Below, one piece after another: positions 4,409 to 58,606 of a stretch of DNA of 64,000 nt. The position numbers were made by a program, and so were the translations under genes. Under the pieces are notes generated by a model. That model was not told the origin of the DNA, did not search any database, and was given only the letters and a program-made list of their open reading frames with translations. Source of the stretch: Candidatus Omnitrophota bacterium (lineage in GTDB: Bacteria; Omnitrophota; Gorgyraeia; Gorgyraeales; Gorgyraeaceae); contig JAUSEX010000026.1 of the NCBI GenBank assembly GCA_030649895.1, forward strand, positions 16,823-80,822. The letters are read 5' to 3'. Each line of letters opens with the position of its first letter. Position 1 is the first letter of the stretch.

Positions 4409-6424
4409 TCAAATTGACCAGACAATACTAAGATTAATTTCTTTGCCGCTTGGGATCTCGAGGCTCCATCTGGGCAATATGCAGGACGCCTGAAAGTTGA
4501 GCTCGTAAGCCCTTTCAGACTGGGATACTGTCTTGACCGGGAAATACCATATGTTTTCCGGCTTTTTTGAAAATGTAAAATAAATGTCTATCTCTTTTCC
4601 TGAATCCTTTATTGAAAACGAATCAGTCCCTGGAACCGCGCCCTTTTCATTGAGGCTAGCCAGAATTTTATCGCCTGCGGAATAACTATATCTATCTGAA
4701 TTTAAATAAGGCATTGTCAGATTGAATTCTATCCCAAAAACAGTCTCTATGGCGTCCTTGCTTAAATTTCTTAAACTATACAATATTTCTACCTGCTTCC
4801 TGCCTTTTAATTTTATTTCTTTTGTAACAGCTATGGCCTTACCATCCGCTTTACCTTCCCTCGCAAGCGCAACTTTATCTTTTCCCTTATTAGCCTTATA
4901 ACTTGCATTTATAAAATCTCCTGATTCTTTAGACTTACAATCTATAAAATCGTCTAACCCTGTTGACCTATCGATAAAATGGTCTATAAGGCATCCTCTT
5001 ACATGGCTATCATAACAAAATTCGGATTTAAGCCCCGGGTCGATAACCTTGGTATCTTCGTGAATAGTGCGCACAGCTTTTGCGTCACCGGATTCCCCCA
5101 TCTTTGCCAGTATTTTTTTGTGATACGTTTCTTCATGCCTCGCTATCGAATTGATAAGGTTCGTAGATACTTTTTTTGCGTCCAATTCCCTTATTATCCC
5201 GCCTTTGTCAGGGTCTATACACAAAGAAATCTCTTCATTCTCAATAATAAATGCCTTTTTGCCGTCCTCATAAAAATCTAACTCTTTTATCTCGACCCAG
5301 CCTTTTTTAGCTTTATGTAAAATCTTGTCTGCTATTTTTTCAGCATTTATAAGATGCTCGTAGATAGCCTTCCTTAAATGATAAAGATATAGCCCTCCGA
5401 ATACGCCATGCCAGTAAGCGCAGTTACATTGGCCTTTATATAATTCCCGTAGAGCCAGTTTTGGCTGAAGGCCGAAGGCTGAAGGCTTAATAGAATTTAC
5501 TTTTTTGCTCACATAATGCATTTTTCTGGCCATCTGATTGGCTTCAGGATAAATTCTCAGGAAATTCAGCCATGAACCATGCGACCACTCCATCATCTCC
5601 TGATATGACGCGTCAGGTATCCTTATTTTTTTCACAGGCGAATTTGAATTCAGATAATCCGACAATTTAATAGTAACAACCCAATCCTTATTCCTGGTTA
5701 ATTCCTCAAAGAATTTATTAAGCCAGTTCTGCTTATAGACCCAGTCATAGGTGAAAGGCCATTCCCCGAATTTTTCAGCGTCATCTCCGTATGTAAACAA
5801 AGGCTCATGCCTTCTTGAAGAAATTCCTTTAAAATAATCCATGATCTCGCCTGGCATTTTAAAAGGTATCATGTAGCGCAGCCTTTTGCTTGAAGGGAAG
5901 ATAGCTATCTCTTTATTTTTTTCGCCTGTTGTAAAATAACCGAACAGTTCATCTATATGCAAACCTGCTTCTATAAAATGCTCATCGTCAAGAATAGAAT
6001 ATTTCATGCCGGCCTTATTGAAATCCTTGGCAAGTTCAGGAGCCCAAACCCTTTCAGGCGTCCACATGCCTTGGGCTTTTTGGCCGAATCGTTTTTTTAC
6101 ATAATCAGCCATCATCTTTATCTGGCCGATCCTGTCAATTTCCGGTATGCTTGTAAAAATAGGTTCGTAGTAACCGCCTCCTATGATTTCCACCTGGCGC
6201 CTGTCAACCATGGCTTTAACTCTGTCCATATAATCAGGATGCTTGTCCTCAAAATAATCCAGAAGACATCCTGAAAAATGAAACGCCATTTTTATATCAG
6301 GGTATTTCTCGAATACGTCAAGGAAAGGCTTATAGCAATTTTGATAGGCCCTCTCTACAATATTATCAAAATTACCTACAGGCTGGTGAAAATGCAAACA
6401 CATCCCAAAGTAAACTTTATTCAT
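4409..6424 (-). CDS. GH57 4-α-glucanotransferase (Thermococcus litoralis-type)
   Basis: HFHQP, the GGGYYEP nucleophile region and the DDAEKFG and CNCAYWHG motifs are collinear with the characterised GH57 4-α-glucanotransferase. Confidence 0.8.
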   Translation of the reverse strand: MNKVYFGMCLHFHQPVGNFDNIVERAYQNCYKPFLDVFEKYPDIKMAFHFSGCLLDYFEDKHPDYMDRVKAMVDRRQVEIIGGGYYEPIFTSIPEIDRIGQIKMMADYVKKRFGQKAQGMWTPERVWAPELAKDFNKAGMKYSILDDEHFIEAGLHIDELFGYFTTGEKNKEIAIFPSSKRLRYMIPFKMPGEIMDYFKGISSRRHEPLFTYGDDAEKFGEWPFTYDWVYKQNWLNKFFEELTRNKDWVVTIKLSDYLNSNSPVKKIRIPDASYQEMMEWSHGSWLNFLRIYPEANQMARKMHYVSKKVNSIKPSAFGLQPKLALRELYKGQCNCAYWHGVFGGLYLYHLRKAIYEHLINAEKIADKILHKAKKGWVEIKELDFYEDGKKAFIIENEEISLCIDPDKGGIIRELDAKKVSTNLINSIARHEETYHKKILAKMGESGDAKAVRTIHEDTKVIDPGLKSEFCYDSHVRGCLIDHFIDRSTGLDDFIDCKSKESGDFINASYKANKGKDKVALAREGKADGKAIAVTKEIKLKGRKQVEILYSLRNLSKDAIETVFGIEFNLTMPYLNSDRYSYSAGDKILASLNEKGAVPGTDSFSIKDSGKEIDIYFTFSKKPENIWYFPVKTVSQSERAYELNFQASCILPRWSLEIPSGKEINLSIVWSI

Positions 6425-6435
6425 ATATATAACCC

Positions 6436-6479
6436 ATCCGACTCACGAAGTCGCCATACGGCGACTTCGTGAGTCGGAT
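6436..6479. repeat. Perfect 20-bp-stem hairpin (ATCCGACTCACGAAGTCGCC-atac-GGCGACTTCGTGAGTCGGAT) directly after the glgA stop. Family-2 CCGACTC..GAGTCGG element with an inner palindrome
   Basis: Read from the sequence. Related shorter hairpins are at 24885-24907 and 58572-58596. Confidence 0.7.
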
Positions 6480-12405: not shown

Positions 12406-12486
12406 AATAGGGACGGTTCTATAAGTAAAGCTAGATATGTCCCTTTAGGGGACATATCTCCGATTGGCTCTAGAACCGTCCCTATT
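12406..12486. repeat. TAGGGAC-arm palindromic element copy 2. Outer 16-bp inverted repeat AATAGGGACGGTTCTA..TAGAACCGTCCCTATT enclosing an inner 11-bp-stem hairpin (AGATATGTCCC-tttag-GGGACATATCT). It overlaps the DUF4912 stop
   Basis: Read from the sequence. It shares the terminal AATAGGGAC with copies 1 and 3. Confidence 0.7.
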
Positions 12487-18936: not shown

Positions 18937-18956
18937 GTGTCCCTTCAATACTAGTT

Positions 18957-18999
18957 AATATTATTCGAGCGAGGCACCAAAAGTGCCGAGTCGAGAACT
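18957..18999. repeat. Family-3 repeat copy A (AATATTATTCGAGCGAGGCACCAAAAGTGCCGAGTCGAGAACT), abutting the galT paralog stop
   Basis: About 90% identical to the copy at 35817-35859. As RNA it contains a GGCAC/GUGCC hairpin. Confidence 0.65.
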
Positions 19000-24874: not shown

Positions 24875-24884
24875 ATATTTAACC

Positions 24885-24907
24885 AATCCGACTCCGTGAG
24901 TCGGATT
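24885..24907. repeat. Family-2 hairpin AATCCGACTC-cgt-GAGTCGGATT, directly after the xerC/D stop
   Basis: Perfect 10-bp stem. It shares its core with the copies at 6436-6479 and 58572-58596. Confidence 0.65.
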
Positions 24908-25795
24908 TTACGGTCTGGGGTGAAACTTCTGATGGATTGATTTTAACCTGTCTTTGCTCACATGCGTATAAATCTGCGTAGTAGAAATATCCGAATGCCC
25001 TAGCATTTCCTGCACTATCCTTAAGTCAGCGCCCCTTTCAAGTATATGCGTAGCGAAAGAATGCCTTAAGCTATGAGGGCTGACTTTTTTCTTTATCCTG
25101 GCTATCTTCACATATCTTTTTATGATCTTCCAGAACGTCTGGCGAGACATGGGCTTACCAAGCCTTGTTAAAAATAAAGAGTTTGAGATTTTCTTCTTTA
25201 GAAACTGCGGCCTGGATTTTTCCAGGTACCGTTCAATGCTTTCTTTCGCCTTTTTGCCAAAAGGCACTATCCTTTCCTTGGAACCTTTACCGAAACATTT
25301 TACAAAACCAACCGCCATATTTATATCGTCCATCTTGAGGTTTACAAGTTCTGAAACCCTCATGCCGGTAGCGTACATAAGCTCCATACAGGCCTTGTCC
25401 CTTATTTCCATGGGGTCCCTAGTGTTCGGGGCATTCAATAAAACCTCGACCTCGCTAATACTCAGAGTGAACGGAAGCTTCTTCCATAATTTAGGGGATT
25501 CGATAATAGTCGCGGCGTCTTCCTTGATTATATTTTCTTTTAGAAGGAACTTAAAAAAACTTTTTATACACGCGAGCTCTCTTGAGACAGAGTTGGAACC
25601 AAGGCCTCTTTCTTTTTCCGACATCATGAACGAATTTATCAGTTGCCTGGAAACCTTATCTATAGAATCAATTTTCTTGGATTTTAAAAAATCGGCAACC
25701 CTGGAAAGATCTCTTTTGTAAGAGCTGAGGGTATTATTCGCCATGCCCTTTTCAACAGATATATAACTTAAAAATTGTTCGATTAATTCATTCAT
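24908..25795 (-). CDS. Tyrosine recombinase XerC/XerD (chromosome dimer resolution type)
   Basis: HSLRHSFATHILE...LGHSDISTTQIYTHV catalytic region and an N-terminal SAM-like domain. Confidence 0.85.
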   Translation of the reverse strand: MNELIEQFLSYISVEKGMANNTLSSYKRDLSRVADFLKSKKIDSIDKVSRQLINSFMMSEKERGLGSNSVSRELACIKSFFKFLLKENIIKEDAATIIESPKLWKKLPFTLSISEVEVLLNAPNTRDPMEIRDKACMELMYATGMRVSELVNLKMDDINMAVGFVKCFGKGSKERIVPFGKKAKESIERYLEKSRPQFLKKKISNSLFLTRLGKPMSRQTFWKIIKRYVKIARIKKKVSPHSLRHSFATHILERGADLRIVQEMLGHSDISTTQIYTHVSKDRLKSIHQKFHPRP

Positions 25796-30405: not shown

Positions 30406-30435
30406 AAGCTGGGCAGGTTTAAACCTGCCCAGCTT
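30406..30435 (-). terminator. Intrinsic terminator after rmuC (12-bp stem AAGCTGGGCAGG/CCTGCCCAGCTT, loop TTTAAA, then a U-rich tract on the minus strand)
   Basis: Read from the sequence. It starts directly at the rmuC stop. Confidence 0.65.
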
Positions 30436-31464
30436 CTATCCTTTACTTTCTAGTTTCTTTTTATCTTCCAGTGAATCCGCAGATAGCAGCTTGTCTTCGA
30501 ATTTATCCAGACTCTTTGCTGCCCTTTCGTAGCTTGATTTTATATTGTCAATATGGCTGCCCATTACCTCGAAATCCTGCGTAAATTTCCCAAGAGATCC
30601 TTTCAAAGTAATCAGCATCTTTATCACTTCCTGCGCCTTCTCCTCCACTTTCAAACCTCTCATACCCAGAATAATCACCTGCAAATACGCGTAGAAACTA
30701 TTCGGAGACACAGGTATGACTTTTTTGGATATAGCGTGCGTAAATATGGACTTTTCTTCTCCGAAACCTTCGTCTTTTATAATCGTTTCGTAATAGACAT
30801 TTTCCGCTGGGATATACATAAGGGCAAAATCATAAGTGCCCTCGTCAGGAAGTATATATTTAGCGGCAATATCATCTATATGCGTTTTTACCGCTTTTAT
30901 AAATTCCTTTTTAGCGCGTTTTTTATCTTCGTCTCCTGTTACCTCCACAAAACGTTTAAAACTCTCCAGCGGAAATTTTGAATCCACAGGCACAAGCCTT
31001 GTCCCTATCTTAATAGCGGCATCAACCCTTTCGCCTGTCTTAAAACAATGCTGAAGCTCATAAAAATCCTTACTGGGCATTATCTGGGCTAAAAGCGATT
31101 CAAGAAACAATTCTCCCAGTCCACCTCTCATTTTAGGCGCCTTGAGTATCTCTTGCAGACTCGCTATATCTTTTCCTACTTCATAAATTTGCTGGGTCTT
31201 TTCATCCAGGGAGCCAAGGCTTTTCTGGACATCGCCAAAAACCCTTGCGGCATTATCCAGTCTCTGGCCAACGCCGCTATTTACTGACGCCAGCTGGGTT
31301 AAAATCAAATCTGTATTTTTTGAAAGCGTATCGCTCCATTCCCTGCGAAGCGCGTTTATTTTTTCTTCACCCTCTTTTGACGCAGAATTGCTCATCTTTC
31401 TGCTAAAAAAGTATATTAGGACCGCTATAACGCAAAAACCTATAATGTTTACCGCTATTATCAT
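30436..31464 (-). CDS. rmuC: DNA recombination protein RmuC
   Basis: N-terminal transmembrane segment, coiled-coil and RmuC C-terminal domain, about 340 aa. Confidence 0.8.
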   Translation of the reverse strand: MIIAVNIIGFCVIAVLIYFFSRKMSNSASKEGEEKINALRREWSDTLSKNTDLILTQLASVNSGVGQRLDNAARVFGDVQKSLGSLDEKTQQIYEVGKDIASLQEILKAPKMRGGLGELFLESLLAQIMPSKDFYELQHCFKTGERVDAAIKIGTRLVPVDSKFPLESFKRFVEVTGDEDKKRAKKEFIKAVKTHIDDIAAKYILPDEGTYDFALMYIPAENVYYETIIKDEGFGEEKSIFTHAISKKVIPVSPNSFYAYLQVIILGMRGLKVEEKAQEVIKMLITLKGSLGKFTQDFEVMGSHIDNIKSSYERAAKSLDKFEDKLLSADSLEDKKKLESKG

Positions 31465-35811: not shown

Positions 35812-35816
35812 TTAGC

Positions 35817-35859
35817 AATATTGTTCGAGCAAGGCACCGAAGATGCCGAGTCGAGAACT
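35817..35859. repeat. Family-3 repeat copy B (AATATTGTTCGAGCAAGGCACCGAAGATGCCGAGTCGAGAACT), overlapping the nusB stop
   Basis: About 90% identical to copy A at 18957-18999. Confidence 0.65.
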
Positions 35860-36275: not shown

Positions 36276-36740
36276 TCAAAGCTCCGCTATCAGATTCGCC
36301 ATTTCAATAGCTGAGCGGGCTGCGTCACGGCCTTTATTGCCCTGTTTCGTGCCTGCCCTTTCTATTGCCTGTTCTATTGAATCAGCTGTAATAATTCCGA
36401 ACATCACAGGCACTCCTGTATTTAAGGAAACATTTGCTATGCCCTTGGATGCCTCGCTCGCCACGTAATCAAAATGAGGCGTCGCTCCTTTAATTATAGT
36501 GCCAAGACATATGACTGAATCATATTTCTTGCTCTTTGCCATATGACTCGCAAGAACAGGTATCTCGAATGCGCCTGGAGCCCACACGACATTAATGTCC
36601 GTTTCTTTTGCCCCATGCCTTAAAAGCTCATCAACGCACCCCTCCAGAAGCCTCTGCGTGATAAAATCATTGAATCTTGAAGCTATAATGCCAAATTTTT
36701 TGCCTTTCGCAACTAGTTCGCCCTGAATTACTTTGTACAT
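36276..36740 (-). CDS. ribH: 6,7-dimethyl-8-ribityllumazine synthase
   Basis: Lumazine synthase motifs, about 154 aa. Confidence 0.9.
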
Positions 36741-36774
36741 ACTGCACCTCCCAAAATTTGATCCCTGGTTATCC

Positions 36775-37998
36775 TTATACTACAGTATATGCGGCTAGGG
36801 ACCTTTTTAATTTATGCCCTAATTTTTTCTTTTTTGTTTCCAGATACCTGACGTTAGCGCAATTAGGCTGCACTTCCATTGGAACCCTCTTTACCACCTC
36901 CAGGCCATAACCGGACAAGCCGACTATCTTACGGGGATTATTCGTGATAAGCTGGATTGTTTTCAACCCAAGATCCGCTAGTATCTGAGCTCCTATGCCA
37001 TAATCCCTTAAATCTGGCTTAAAACCAAGCTGCTCATTCGCCTCTACCGTATCAAAGCCTTTATCCTGTAAAGCGTACGCCTTTATCTTATTAGCCAAGC
37101 CTATGCCCCGGCCCTCCTGCCTCATATACAAAAGAACGCCTCTATTTTTTTCTCCAATAAGCCTCAAAGTTCTTTTAAGCTGGTCCCCGCAATCGCATCT
37201 TCTGGATCCAAATATATCTCCTGTAAGGCATTCTGAATGAACGCGCACCAGAACGTCTTTTTTCCCCTTCACGTCCCCTTTTACTAAAGCCATATGCTGG
37301 TATCTATCAATGCTTGATTCATAAAGATACAATTTAAAAACTCCGTAATCCGTGGGAATCTGGCTATTCGCAATACATGTCACAAGTTTTTCTGACCTGC
37401 GCCTGTAATTTATAAGCTCCGCTATGGTGCCTATTTTAAGCTTATGTTTTTTTGCAAACTTAACAAGGTCTTTCTGTCTCGCCATTGTGCCGTCATTATT
37501 TATTATTTCGCATATAACCCCTGCGGGATAAAGTCCCGCTAATTTCATAAGGTCAACGCATGCTTCCGTATGGCCTGCGCGCGTCAATGTCCCCCCATCC
37601 TTTGCCCTCAAAGGAAATACATGCCCGGGACGAGCCAGATCAGCAGACATTGTCCCGGGATTTATCAGGGCTTTCACTGTAACAGAGCGGTCATGCGCTG
37701 AAATACCCGTAGTAGTATTCTTTTTAGCGTCTACGGAAATAGCCCATGCGGTTTTGAACGTATCCTGGTTTTCCTCATGCATTGGATGCAGGCCCAGTTC
37801 ATCGAGCCTTGAACCTTCCATTGGCATGCATACAAGGCCTTTTGCATGCGTTATAATAAAGTTTATTGCCTGCGGGGTCGCGTATTCAGCCGCAATAACA
37901 AGATCGCCTTCATTCTCGCGGCCTTCATCGTCCACAATAATGACCATCCTGCCTTTTTTCAAGTCCTTGCTGATTTCAGGTATTGTATTAAATTTCAT
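36775..37998 (-). CDS. ribBA: Bifunctional DHBP synthase / GTP cyclohydrolase II
   Basis: N-terminal RibB (DDE.RENEGDL) plus C-terminal RibA (C..C.C zinc motif), about 407 aa. Confidence 0.95.
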
Positions 37999-38012
37999 AA
38001 GTTCCTATCATT

Positions 38013-38066
38013 ACCCTGTCCACCCCGCAGGCGGCCCAATTGGGCCGCCTGCGGGGTGGACAGGGT
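38013..38066. repeat. 54-nt perfect GC-rich palindrome (ACCCTGTCCACCCCGCAGGCGGCCCAA|TTGGGCCGCCTGCGGGGTGGACAGGGT) between the riboswitch terminator and the ribBA RBS
   Basis: Read from the sequence. There are 27 of 27 complementary positions and no loop. Confidence 0.8.
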
Positions 38067-38101
38067 TTAAAATTAAAAATGCCCGAAGAGAGTCTTCGGG
38101 C
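38067..38101 (-). terminator. FMN-riboswitch expression-platform terminator (9-bp stem GCCCGAAGA/UCUUCGGGC + AUUUUUAAUUUU)
   Basis: Hairpin plus U-tract. The CUCUCUUC strand of the loop and stem is complementary to the aptamer 3' segment GAGAGAAGAG, which would act as an anti-terminator. Confidence 0.75.
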
Positions 38102-38104
38102 AAT

Positions 38105-38240
38105 AAAATACAACGCGCTTACCTCTTCTCTCATCTAGCCTTTCACAATCGGTTCCGGAATCACGCCGGATCTGCCCTCTTTTACGAGAGCTCGCGGACT
38201 TTACCGCCGGTGGGGAATTTCACCCTCTCCCGAAGATACT
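38105..38240 (-). promoter_or_regulatory. FMN riboswitch (RFN element) aptamer in the ribBA leader
   Basis: The minus-strand RNA reads ...CUUCGGGAGAGGGUGAAAUUCCCCACCGGCGGUAAAGUCCGCGAGC...GAUUCCGGAACCGAUUGUGAAAGGCUAGAUGAGAGAAGAGG, matching the conserved RFN core (GGGUGAAAUUCCC, ACCGGCGGUA, CAGUGAAAG, GAUGGGAGAAG). Confidence 0.85.
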
Positions 38241-38244
38241 GTGT

Positions 38245-38272
38245 ATTATACCAACTTACGCCTTTTTGTCAA
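38245..38272 (-). promoter_or_regulatory. Consensus σ70-type promoter of the rib operon (TTGACA-16 nt-TATAAT), a few nt upstream of the riboswitch
   Basis: The -35 box is the reverse complement of 38267-38272 and the -10 box is the reverse complement of 38245-38250, both read directly. Confidence 0.6.
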
Positions 38273-41219: not shown

Positions 41220-41240
41220 CCACTTTAATAGACTTTAATA

Positions 41241-41303
41241 GGGACAGCGCCCTATTTTAACTTGTCCTCTGAAATTTTCGCGTATAAAATAGGGCGCTGT
41301 CCC
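41241..41303. repeat. TAGGGAC-arm palindromic element copy 3 (18-bp arms GGGACAGCGCCCTATTTT / AAAATAGGGCGCTGTCCC, 27-nt spacer), between the gpsA stop and the tRNA-Pro 5' end
   Basis: Read from the sequence. Each arm is also internally palindromic (TAGGG-ACAGCG-CCCTA). Confidence 0.7.
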
Positions 41304-41336
41304 TTAATTATACCACATATAAAGCGCGGTTTCAAA

Positions 41337-51547: not shown

Positions 51548-51558
51548 TCCTTTCTTAA

Positions 51559-51596
51559 TTCCGCTATGCGATCGGAAGCCCGATCGCATAGCGGAA
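51559..51596 (-). promoter_or_regulatory. Perfect 17-bp-stem hairpin (TTCCGCTATGCGATCGG-aagc-CCGATCGCATAGCGGAA) between fabD and fabG, with no U-tract
   Basis: Read from the sequence. It lies within the fabD-fabG spacer directly upstream of the fabG RBS. Confidence 0.5.
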
Positions 51597-51604
51597 TCGG
51601 TCTA

Positions 51605-58571: not shown

Positions 58572-58596
58572 TCTTTCCGACTCCGTGAGTCGGAAA
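58572..58596. repeat. Family-2 hairpin CTTTCCGACTC-cgt-GAGTCGGAAAG, after the recG stop
   Basis: Perfect 11-bp stem. On the plus strand it is followed by GTTAAGTTTTTACCC (U-rich). Confidence 0.65.
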
Positions 58597-58606
58597 GGTT
58601 AAGTTT

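Follow-up and report, generated by a model that had tools for sequence, protein, structure and literature searches.

The closest described system to the leader analysed here is that of B. subtilis ribD, in which an RFN element is followed by a terminator platform. The two share a full-length aptamer, a terminator with a U tract, a downstream rib operon and competition between P1 and the terminator, and the sole addition in our locus relative to a ribD-type FMN riboswitch is a 54-nt palindrome after the terminator that is missing in relatives.

Stabiliser hairpins and RNase III stems are known from other 5' UTRs, among them E. coli ompA, the 5' stem-loops of B. subtilis aprE and ermC, and operon-leader sites. 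Mobile palindromes form another group: Rickettsia palindromic elements, Neisseria Correia elements and the G+C clusters of yeast mitochondria land in permissive non-coding or RNA-loop sites. REP and REPIN elements are repetitive extragenic palindromes that carry a GTAG or CGTC tag and are linked to RAYTs (Di Nocera et al. 2013, PMC3733652; Bertels and Rainey 2011, PMC3116915). Tagged REPs occur in eight phyla including Planctomycetes, and O. terrae has many intragenic GTAG repeats (PMC3733652). The literature yielded nothing relevant on palindromic elements in Omnitrophota. Here we compare the rib leader and its palindrome, which lie in a 64-kb stretch of Omnitrophota DNA (the window), with related loci and with these systems.

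Results

The leader is a standard attenuating FMN riboswitch

The features of the leader and of the first gene are as follows.

38245..38272, minus strand: sigma-70-type promoter, TTGACA-16-TATAAT with a TG extended -10 (12/12 matches)
38119..38241, minus strand: FMN riboswitch aptamer (RFN element; RF00050 covariance-model match)
38070..38102, minus strand: intrinsic terminator, the expression platform, with stem UGCCCGAAGA / UCUUCGGGCA and loop CUC, then UUUUUAAUUU
38013..38066, no strand assigned: perfect loop-less 27+27-nt G+C-rich palindrome in the terminator-to-RBS spacer (inverted-repeat search)
38003..38006, minus strand: weak Shine-Dalgarno-like AGGA, 4 nt 5' of the ribBA ATG (direct sequence reading)
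36775..37998, minus strand: ribBA (DHBP synthase and GTP cyclohydrolase II), first gene of the operon (PF00926, 3.7e-84; PF00925, 1.2e-73)

An earlier note on this DNA, made from the letters alone, had described a consensus promoter, an RFN aptamer and a classical terminator with a U tract, and all three hold. The promoter matches consensus at every hexamer position on the minus strand (38272-38245), and TTGACA..TTGGTATAAT is conserved across relatives L002-L010 in a comparison of leaders. The RF00050 search that the note had called for returned 98.9 bits (gathering score 66.2; E=1.1e-21) over the full model, positions 1-138, which places the element in the family, and orthologous FMN aptamers exceed the gathering score in 19 relatives. 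The terminator scan found a stem at 38102-38080 (minus strand) with 10 pairs, six of them G-C, a 3-nt loop and TTTTTAATTT directly after it; the terminator is present in both the MFE and the centroid fold. The AGGA lies within a TAGGAAC motif common to the L090 and L004 leaders in the leader alignment. After ribBA the operon continues on the same strand with ribH, nusB, a PHP-domain gene, ribD and ribE, and the riboflavin biosynthesis genes ribBA, ribH, ribD and ribE all lie downstream of the FMN riboswitch.

The note had based attenuation on pairing between the 3' segment of the aptamer and the 3' strand of the terminator. This pairing, of the 3' strand of P1 with the terminator 3' arm, is possible (6 bp, -8.7 kcal/mol), but there is a stronger competitor: the 5' strand of P1, UCUUCGGG (38229-38236), is identical to the greater part of the terminator 3' arm UCUUCGGGC and is therefore able to pair with the terminator 5' arm CCCGAAGA (8 bp, -12.2 kcal/mol). 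Paired with each other, the terminator arms reach -15.6 kcal/mol, compared with -12.2 and -8.7 kcal/mol for the competitors. The aptamer is thus followed by an intrinsic terminator and an alternative pairing that excludes it, the arrangement of an expression platform, with ligand dependence that is predicted. The strong promoter would drive transcription of the aptamer; when FMN is bound, P1 would form and the downstream hairpin and U tract would terminate transcription; when FMN is absent, the terminator arms would face competing pairing with the P1 strands, and RNA polymerase would read into ribBA-ribH-nusB-PHP-ribD-ribE. This is a standard FMN riboswitch of the transcription-attenuating type, with nothing unusual in the switch itself.

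A real 54-nt palindrome lies between the terminator and ribBA

The perfect, loop-less 27+27-nt palindrome that the note had placed between the terminator and the ribBA RBS is there: its arms (38013-38039 and 38040-38066) are 100% complementary with 0 nt between them. It lies between thrC and ribBA, which are on the same strand, within the rib 5' UTR and 15 nt from the ribBA start, and its boundaries read TTTTAA against ACCC on one side and GGGT against AATGAT on the other. The G+C content of about 77% that had been given for it is what direct counting gives for the CCCTG..CAGGG core of 52 nt; it comes to 74% over the full 54 nt, in a window of 39-45%. At up to three mismatches the palindrome is single-copy in the 64-kb window, where shuffles expect none. 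Directly after it the minus strand reads AAUGAUAGGAACUU and the plus strand TTAAAATTAA, neither of which is a U tract. The predicted RNA is a 25-bp stem with an AAUU loop (-62.9 kcal/mol).

Perfect zero-loop palindromes are a known class of assembly artefact, and the palindrome could on that account be a spurious inverted duplication made by the assembler. In an independent Logan assembly (k=31) of run SRR13727527, one contig matches the window at 100% identity over 1737 nt and begins exactly 3 nt beyond the palindrome centre. That the contig breaks at the palindrome might be read as a sign of artefact; however, a k=31 de Bruijn graph must break if the reads carry perfect 27-nt arms, so that a start 3 nt past the centre is what would be expected of a genuine palindrome. 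Furthermore, the sequences that border it, the terminator and the ribBA RBS, are each unique and make biological sense, and equivalent palindromes are present in many independently assembled relatives. We conclude that the palindrome is real and not an assembly artefact, a spurious duplication being very improbable.

The palindrome is absent from relatives and its spacer turns over quickly

Our comparison set comprised 23 distinct related Omnitrophota rib leaders, with RibBA identities of 72-89% (amino acids) and ribBA identities of 69-81% (nucleotides). The palindrome is missing from all 23. An exact search with a 22-nt segment of the arm found no match in 185,579 species genomes or in JGI metagenomes, and one with the 30-nt palindrome centre found none in IMG/VR viral contigs. 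Blastn against plasmids returned only chance G+C-rich matches in Streptomyces and Rhizobium, and blastn-short of the arm against 161 related and other loci returned nothing past 10-12-mers. A known RNA family was considered and rejected: a permissive Rfam scan of the palindrome gave only hairpin noise of the miRNA-precursor type, far under gathering scores.

The spacer in which the palindrome lies is bare in 12 of the 23 relatives (L002, L003, L006, L007, L009, L010, L011, L014, L015, L091, L092 and L098), where it measures 8-32 nt (MFE about 0 to -4.4 kcal/mol). In the other 11 it holds hairpins of -10 to -73 kcal/mol that fall into at least seven unrelated sequence classes, among them, in L087, another perfect palindrome without a loop (22+22). 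The distribution of these states over the ribBA tree is patchy: L004, L005 and L006 have near-identical ribBA genes and three different spacer states, and a CGATCG-type spacer hairpin occurs in four separate subclades. This terminator-to-RBS spacer of 16-30 nt turns over quickly, gaining and losing hairpins across the clade. It is in this loose sense only that the spacer resembles the recombination hot spot that had been proposed.

The comparison thus indicates that the palindrome is an unconserved, lineage-specific insertion and not a component of the riboswitch. This agrees with the view in the earlier note that such a palindrome lies outside the known FMN riboswitch architecture, and of the outcome that the note had set against a function, a recent unconserved insertion with no effect on expression, the first half is what the 23 leaders and all collections scanned point to. 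Because ribBA identity to the closest relative sequenced is only about 81%, "recent" can here mean only since the split from the sampled lineages.

Palindromes are dense and dispersed across the clade

Close Omnitrophota loci and the window together contain 34 perfect stems of at least 12 bp in 241 kb (1.41 per 10 kb), compared with 24 in 863 kb (0.28 per 10 kb) in other taxa, a density five times higher in the clade. The window alone has seven perfect stems of at least 11 bp against 0.16 in shuffles. In a second scan, which allowed up to three mismatches, 23 of 26 hairpins were intergenic and 12 of those 23 had loops of 0-1 nt, and about 15 of the 22 short intergenic gaps of the window fold strongly. 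Several of the palindromes belong to dispersed families. The GTAGGGACAGCACAaTGTGCTGTCCCTAC family has three copies within 9 kb of L005 and is also found in L006 and L090; the CTGTAGGCCAGGTTTAAACCTGGCCTACAG family has four copies within 6 kb of L098; the TTCTCGACTC..GCTCGAAYAATATT family occurs twice in the window (35812-35857 and 18949-18999) and again in the rib leader of L089 and L099; and the CCGACTCAC family has three window copies, one with a nested palindrome. Some families are headed by GTAG, which is paired inside the stem.

Relatives also carry extra hairpins of 50-65 nt in the variable loop of the FMN aptamer. We considered these as insertions and dropped the idea, the site being a loop already modelled as variable by Rfam.

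A hairpin at 6894-6945 of L010 (CCTGTCCAACCTCCGAGGTTGCC..) sits in the gap that separates the PHP gene from ribD. Aligned to the arm of the window palindrome, its arm scores 11, the best of 57 arms (the next scores 6), and this score was reached by 18 of 20000 shuffles, or roughly p = 0.05 corrected for 57 comparisons. The similarity is suggestive of a diverged relative of the window palindrome in another gap of the rib operon.

Discussion

Origin of the palindrome

Altogether, these results lead us to favor, as the probable reading, a model in which the rib palindrome is a lineage-specific, REP/MITE-like insertion drawn from a fast-turnover population in the clade, and a passenger in the leader and not a part of the switch. 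The members of this population, perfect or near-perfect and often loop-less, would fill gaps between co-directional genes and behave like small dispersed hairpin repeats of the REP/REPIN/MITE type, and one of them would have inserted into the short, A+T-rich stretch that separates the terminator from the ribBA RBS. Mobility is the origin that we infer for the palindrome; since there is one copy in 64 kb and none elsewhere in the sequences searched, its membership of a repeated mobile family is putative.

Like REPs and REPINs, the palindrome is G+C-rich and extragenic, lies between co-directional genes and would be transcribed in the operon RNA, and the surrounding clade has GTAG-headed families at REP-like density (three copies per 9 kb in L005). 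It differs from them in being 54 nt long, perfect over 27/27 and without a loop, whereas REPs are 20-40 nt, imperfect and looped; in having no unpaired GTAG or CGTC tag, inspection of its flanks having found neither GTAG/CTAC nor CGTC/GACG; and in being single-copy in 64 kb with no database match and no RAYT in the window. The GTAG families of the clade likewise pair in their stems the tag that REPs leave unpaired. Among 50 window ORFs scanned with Pfam there is no Y1/RAYT transposase (PF01797) and no other transposase, the sole recombinase being an integrase-family protein of the XerC/D type (24908-25795).

The resemblance to MITEs is likewise partial, as the palindrome has neither terminal inverted repeats distinct from its body nor a consistent target-site duplication, and a multicopy family is putative. 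It is flanked only by an ambiguous A/T repeat of 2-3 nt. Two candidate target-site duplications, TAA..TAA at the window palindrome and GGTAAA..GGTAAA at the L010 aptamer hairpin, were dropped after a survey of 31 clade palindromes revealed no consistent flanking repeat or target-site duplication. Rickettsia palindromic elements, Correia elements and yeast mitochondrial G+C clusters offer a further parallel: a G+C-rich palindrome in an A+T-rich spacer whose presence varies between close relatives, and extra hairpins in the variable loop of relatives' aptamers.

The palindrome could instead have arisen de novo by template switching at a replication fork (quasi-palindrome correction or fold-back synthesis) with no pre-existing element. 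Such a mechanism would account, without selection, for the 27/27 perfection of the arms and for the finding that differences between copies, paralogous and orthologous, are mirrored in both arms of clade palindromes, many of which have perfect arms of more than 20 nt and loops of 0-1 nt. It is also in keeping with a window hairpin at 6436-6479 in which the CCGACTCAC..GAGTCGG unit seems to have been extended inward as a palindrome, and with a stretch of 11 identical nt (ACCCCGCAGGC) that the arm shares with ribBA codons at a distance of 135 nt. However, template switching copies local sequence, and no relative has a G+C-rich precursor in its spacer; the match to ribBA codons (37868-37878) is at chance level (E=8.8), and we rejected an origin from nearby sequence. 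Moreover, dispersed families at non-homologous loci require copy-and-paste and not only local perfection. We therefore regard a purely local origin as improbable.

A further hypothesis, speculative and to our minds doubtful, is that the clade harbors an undescribed class of self-propagating DNA palindromes, distinct from classical REPs in their perfect symmetry, their frequent lack of a loop, their length of up to 54 nt and their arm-for-arm evolution. These elements may insert or grow preferentially beside hairpins such as terminators, stop-codon-proximal stems and RNA loops, nesting as they do so, and may be driven by a single-strand-DNA or template-switch mechanism. If so, the palindrome of the rib leader would be their largest and most recent representative, and the spacer between riboswitch terminator and RBS a natural experiment on how a 5' UTR tolerates or recruits palindromes.

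Consequences for rib expression

Because the palindrome lies after the termination point, it would be transcribed only in read-through (low-FMN) RNA, in which it would fold immediately, and on its own, into a 25-bp hairpin whose end lies 15 nt 5' of the AUG. The predicted probability that the RBS is unpaired is 0.58 with the native leader and 0.62 with the palindrome deleted. Occlusion or insulation of the RBS was rejected on the basis of this essentially unchanged accessibility. A second terminator was also rejected, as the palindrome has no U tract and the scan calls only the riboswitch terminator. With no U tract and no masking of the RBS, the effect on rib expression is most likely nil or confined to RNA processing or stability, and we infer that the palindrome lacks a regulatory role.

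The earlier note had raised two regulatory possibilities, a protein operator and a second structural gate. An operator for a dimeric regulator, or a gate adding a layer of control to the riboswitch, would fit the dyad symmetry and the position between promoter and gene. Yet 54 bp is far longer than known operators, the palindrome is conserved in no relative and there is no adjacent regulator gene; it lies downstream of the termination decision, and its arms satisfy each other completely, so that no alternative pairing with aptamer, terminator or RBS is favored. We consider either role highly implausible.

More serious consideration is due to the idea that a stable hairpin between terminator and RBS is selected in the clade as an RNA element, of which the window palindrome is the version of this lineage. 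Such an element could be an RNase III site that severs the aptamer from the mRNA, a 5'-proximal barrier that stabilizes the ribBA message, or an insulator of the RBS from the pyrimidine-rich switch. A strong hairpin at the same site in 11 of the 23 related leaders and in the window, in at least seven sequence classes, is consistent with this idea, as is the spacer hairpin of L083 and L084, whose pairing is kept through one compensated C:G to T:A change and one G-U wobble. Sense-strand mismatches in clade hairpins also lean this way (four G-T and no A-C, a very small sample, too few to decide). RNase III requires roughly two helical turns, a length that the 25-bp perfect helix exceeds. Nevertheless, the bare spacers of 12 of the 23 relatives include those of very close kin of hairpin bearers, and the predicted accessibility of the RBS is the same without the palindrome. 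In addition, hairpins occur in most intergenic gaps of the window, so the rib spacer is not a special site, and half of the intergenic palindromes of the clade have loops of 0-1 nt, a symmetry that points to an origin at the DNA level. Recruitment thus seems to us unlikely, though worth bearing in mind.

For a passenger palindrome, any effect would most likely be, at most, that of an RNase III substrate or exonuclease barrier, and an RNase III site is a plausible consequence of the predicted 25-bp perfect helix. In this respect it resembles the ompA and aprE/ermC leaders, with a very stable predicted helix of RNase III length near the RBS in a 5' UTR, and differs from them in that it lies away from the 5' end of the primary transcript and is not conserved.

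Implications

A conspicuous structure in a riboswitch leader calls for a comparative check before it is taken for a part of the switch, and here the comparison points to a passenger. If the palindrome does alter processing of the ribBA mRNA, it would offer a simple natural case in which a mobile hairpin modifies the output of an operon under riboswitch control. More broadly, these data describe a genome-wide feature of an uncultivated phylum, in which most intergenic gaps carry long, often perfectly symmetric palindromes and dispersed families vary between close relatives. Such palindromes matter for the assembly of metagenome-assembled genomes, because contigs break at them as the Logan contig does, for the annotation of operons and UTRs in Omnitrophota, and for understanding how REP-like elements arise and spread.

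Architecture of the rib leader

The rib leader and its neighbours all lie on the minus strand, with gpsA, tRNA-Pro, a PilZ protein gene, hom and a thrC-like PALP enzyme gene upstream and ribBA, ribH, nusB, a PHP-domain gene, ribD and ribE downstream.

Features of the rib leader, in the direction of transcription
38272-38245, minus: promoter TTGACA-16-TATAAT, 12/12 matches, TG extended -10
38241-38119, minus: FMN aptamer (RF00050, full model, 98.9 bits against a gathering threshold of 66.2)
38102-38080, minus: terminator with a 10-pair stem, then UUUUUAAUUU (terminator scan)
38066-38013, minus: perfect palindrome of 27+27 nt with zero spacer, beginning after 13 more nt
ATG at 37998, minus: start of ribBA, preceded by AAUGAUAGGAACUU directly 3' of the palindrome

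An earlier note, made from the sequence alone, had described a consensus promoter, an FMN riboswitch with its terminator and a G+C-rich, loop-less perfect palindrome, and these observations are confirmed in every particular; only the attenuation pairing needed refinement. The helix proposed in that note, which joins the 3' strand of P1 to the terminator's 3' arm, amounts to just 6 bp (-8.7 kcal/mol). A stronger pairing is predicted for the 5' strand of P1: its sequence, UCUUCGGG, matches most of the terminator's 3' arm, UCUUCGGGC, so that it can capture the terminator 5' arm CCCGAAGA in 8 bp (-12.2 kcal/mol). This motif pair is kept in all relatives. The riboswitch itself is a new but unremarkable RF00050 member. 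The palindrome is 74% G+C, against 39-45% for the window; its RNA is predicted to fold, at -62.9 kcal/mol, into a helix of 25 bp closed by an AAUU loop, and a search of the 64-kb window found no second copy.

Of the 62 window ORFs (1-64000) that reach 90 aa, 60 are encoded by the minus strand, and the GC skew stays negative from end to end, which indicates a long co-oriented run of housekeeping genes. Its content includes glycolysis, a four-gene GH57-family cluster with glycogen synthases, fab genes, pta-ackA and a T2SS/pilus-like cluster.

The palindrome in an independent assembly

The Logan assembly of SRR13727527 contains an identical RibBA on a 1737-nt contig (L001) that is 100% identical to window 36306-38042 and starts at window position 38042, 3 nt past the palindrome centre. 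If the arms are perfect over 27 nt, a graph built with k=31 must branch at this very point (31-1-27 = 3), since the first k-mer wholly within the palindrome is common to both orientations; from how de Bruijn graphs behave, we take the contig break as read-level evidence for the perfect palindrome. An inverted-duplication artefact is very unlikely, because the flanks are unique and biologically sensible, which is not expected of such an artefact. Perfect palindromes of this size break up short-read assemblies of these genomes. For the ThrC protein across the palindrome from L001 there is no complete gene on record.

Comparison with related rib leaders

The nearest RibBA relatives, from Candidatus Omnitrophota, share 85-89% protein identity and at most 81% ribBA DNA identity, and they place the window in that group. 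A full-scoring FMN aptamer is present in 19 relatives, all of which share the promoter and the CCCGAAGA..UCUUCGGG terminator. Comparison of these leaders, which the earlier note had proposed, found the palindrome in none of them. The arm segment had no exact match in the GTDB representative set or JGI contigs, both of which lack the source species, and the 30-nt palindrome centre had none in IMG/VR.

What varies among the fetched relatives (L numbers) is the spacer from terminator to ATG. It is bare in L002, L003, L006, L007, L009, L010, L011, L014, L015, L091, L092 and L098 (8-32 nt, MFE about 0 to -4.4 kcal/mol). Elsewhere it is occupied by strongly folding inserts of at least 7 unrelated sequence classes, that of L087 being another perfect loop-less palindrome, ACTTTAACCGCGCAGGTCGCCT|AGGCGACCTGCGCGGTTAAAGT.

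MFE of occupied spacers (kcal/mol)
L004: -13.9
L005: -73
L008: -24
L012: -11.7
L013: -28
L083: -37
L084: -44.6
L087: -56
L089/L099: -51
L090: -9.7
L094: -37.7

In the leader alignment the conserved terminator and AUUUUAAUU bound one end of the spacer and the start region bounds the opposite end; the relatives' spacers contain no local G+C-rich precursor. The window palindrome appears as an insertion 5' of a TAGGAAC motif and the hairpins of L090, L004, L083 and L084 lie 3' of it; these are therefore separate events, a few nt apart. On a ribBA neighbour-joining tree the spacer states are patchy, with the CGATCG-type hairpin in four subclades, and L004, L005 and L006 differ although their ribBA genes are near-identical: L004 has a CGATCG-type hairpin, L005 has two hairpins and L006 has nothing there. 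Spacer turnover is much faster than that of the ribBA gene.

Hairpins also occur elsewhere in these leaders. FMN aptamers of 174-188 nt, against about 122, are present in L010 (3763-3937), L087 (2106-2279), L090 (179-359) and L094 (202-389), and similarly enlarged ones in L012, L014 and L092; each has, behind GGCGGUAA, a variable loop that bears a G+C-rich hairpin of 50-65 nt. These hairpins form two homologous pairs, L010/L087 and L090/L094, and the aptamers all still score 86-91 bits. In L007, L008, L087 and L089/L099 an imperfect hairpin of about 60 nt, GAAGTCCTGCGAAGCTC..GAGCGAAGCAGGA, inserted after the 3' strand of aptamer helix P1 and before the terminator, makes the expression platform longer.

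A clade-wide population of intergenic palindromes

Perfect hairpins (stem at least 12 bp, loop at most 8 nt) number 34 in 241 kb of close Omnitrophota loci and the window, or 1.41 per 10 kb, against 24 in 863 kb (0.28 per 10 kb) in other taxa fetched by the same query. In the window alone, perfect stems of 11 bp or more number 7, where composition-matched shuffles give 0.16. When up to three mismatches were permitted in a second scan of the clade, 23 of 26 hairpins were intergenic; in 12 of these 23 the loop measures 0 or 1 nt, which makes them true DNA palindromes, not typical RNA stem-loops. Of the window's 22 short gaps that separate co-directional genes, about 15 fold strongly, their hairpins often beginning a few nt past a stop codon and ending 8-20 nt before the next start. 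Long palindromes at the rib leader are thus nothing special to that site.

Several families are dispersed. GTAGGGACAGCACAaTGTGCTGTCCCTAC has three copies in 9 kb of L005, recurs in L006 and L090 and lies between ribBA and ribH in several genomes; CTGTAGGCCAGGTTTAAACCTGGCCTACAG has four copies in 6 kb of L098, with same-type centres at window 30406-30435 and L084 3212. The TTCTCGACTC..GCTCGAAYAATATT family occupies window 35812-35857 and 18949-18999 (minus strand) and the rib leaders of L089 (86-140) and L099 (2381-2435), and CCGACTCAC(G)GAGTCGG has three window copies (6436-6479, 58573-58597 and about 24880-24904). Copies differ by changes in both arms, such as GTAGGGACAG/CTGTCCCTAC versus GTAGGGCCAG/CTGGCCCTAC; the hairpins of L084 and L083, likewise, differ by a single C:G to T:A change plus one G-U. 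A head of GTAG characterises one REP superfamily, and tagged REPs are reported from 8 phyla, Planctomycetes among them (PMC3733652). In the Omnitrophota families, however, the GTAG is paired within the stem.

Individual copies show further structure. As TTCTCGACTCGGCA..TGCCYYGCTCGAAYAATATT, the hairpin repeat fills the nusB-PHP gap (35812-35857) and a gap between two GalT-like genes (18949-18999); the orthologous L005 gap (6245-6340) holds an insert of about 58 nt nested in the loop. In the 6436-6479 copy a further perfect palindrome, GAAGTCGCC-gtat-GGCGACTTC, takes the place of the loop; the resulting perfect stem of 20 bp looks like nested or inward palindrome growth. The loop-less 15+15 palindrome AAGCTGGGCAGGTTTAAACCTGCCCAGCTT (30406-30435) immediately follows the stop codon of an RmuC-family gene (30436-31464), precedes TTTTAG and tRNA-Pro(cgg), and may double as a terminator; its centre GGTTTAAACC recurs in L098 (four copies) and at L084 3212. 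Three 60-80-nt elements (1951-2028, 12406-12486 and 41237-41304), one just upstream of tRNA-Pro(ggg), have inverted AATAGGGAC(A/G)G ends, a half-site found 5 times against 1.28 expected, and are similar to the REP-like palindromes with a GTAGGGACAG head in L005, L006 and L090. HIP1-like palindromes with a CGATCG or GCGATCGC core occupy different gaps in L083 (883-939 and about 5516-5548), L084 (206-245) and L094 (3528-3573); the single window copy (51558-51597) separates a fabD-like from a fabG-like gene and overlaps the annotated start of the downstream ORF.

The closest candidate for kin of the rib-leader palindrome is CCTGTCCAACCTCCGAGGTTGCC-cactat-GGCAACCTCGGAGGTTGGACAGG (L010 6894-6945), at the junction of the PHP gene and ribD, which overlap in the window. 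Against the window arm (CCTGTCCA-CC-CCG-AGG--GCCCA) its arm has an alignment score of 11, reached by 18 of 20000 shuffles; it is the best of 57 hairpin arms from all loci, the next scoring 6. After correction for the number of comparisons this kinship is only suggestive, and the resemblance fits a diverged family whose members change symmetrically at different gaps. We also considered an origin from nearby ribBA sequence, as an 11-nt identity with the palindrome arm, ACCCCGCAGGC (37868-37878, codons for T-P-Q-A of RibB), lies 135 nt downstream on the same strand; with a BLAST E of 8.8 it is probably chance.

Discussion

The palindrome lies 3' of the U tract, and the FMN decision has therefore already been made when it is transcribed; by the established mechanism of terminator-type riboswitches, it would be present in read-through RNA only. 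It is fully self-complementary, no U tract stands behind it on either strand and the terminator scan makes no call there. Predicted unpaired probability over positions -12 to +3 is 0.58 in the native sequence and 0.62 with the palindrome deleted in silico. Rfam offers no family for it, only miRNA-like hairpin noise well under threshold, and no regulator gene adjoins the rib leader. The best-supported reading is therefore that the palindrome is a passenger, REP/MITE-like, that settled in a non-coding site, one of few permissive ones in a compact and almost uniformly co-oriented genome. The main alternative is an effect on processing or stability of ribBA mRNA, since RNase III would accept a perfect helix of 25 bp as a substrate, and such a helix could also block exonucleases. 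In its favour, half of the relatives have some hairpin in the spacer, with pairing kept. The other half have none, and hairpins abound outside this spacer as well, which speaks against a function tied to the site. We regard such an effect as unlikely.

As to the origin of the palindrome, no consistent target-site duplication was found around the clade palindromes, nor a transposase among the 50 window ORFs scanned. The zero-loop symmetry and mirrored substitutions suggest a process at the DNA level, for which candidates would be single-strand hairpin transposition by RAYT- or IS200-type enzymes, or template-switch perfection. The rib-leader palindrome is real and extreme, yet unconserved, and it is one of many intergenic palindromes, of a broadly known kind, that occur throughout the clade. 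It is this wider phenomenon in Omnitrophota that is worth pursuing.
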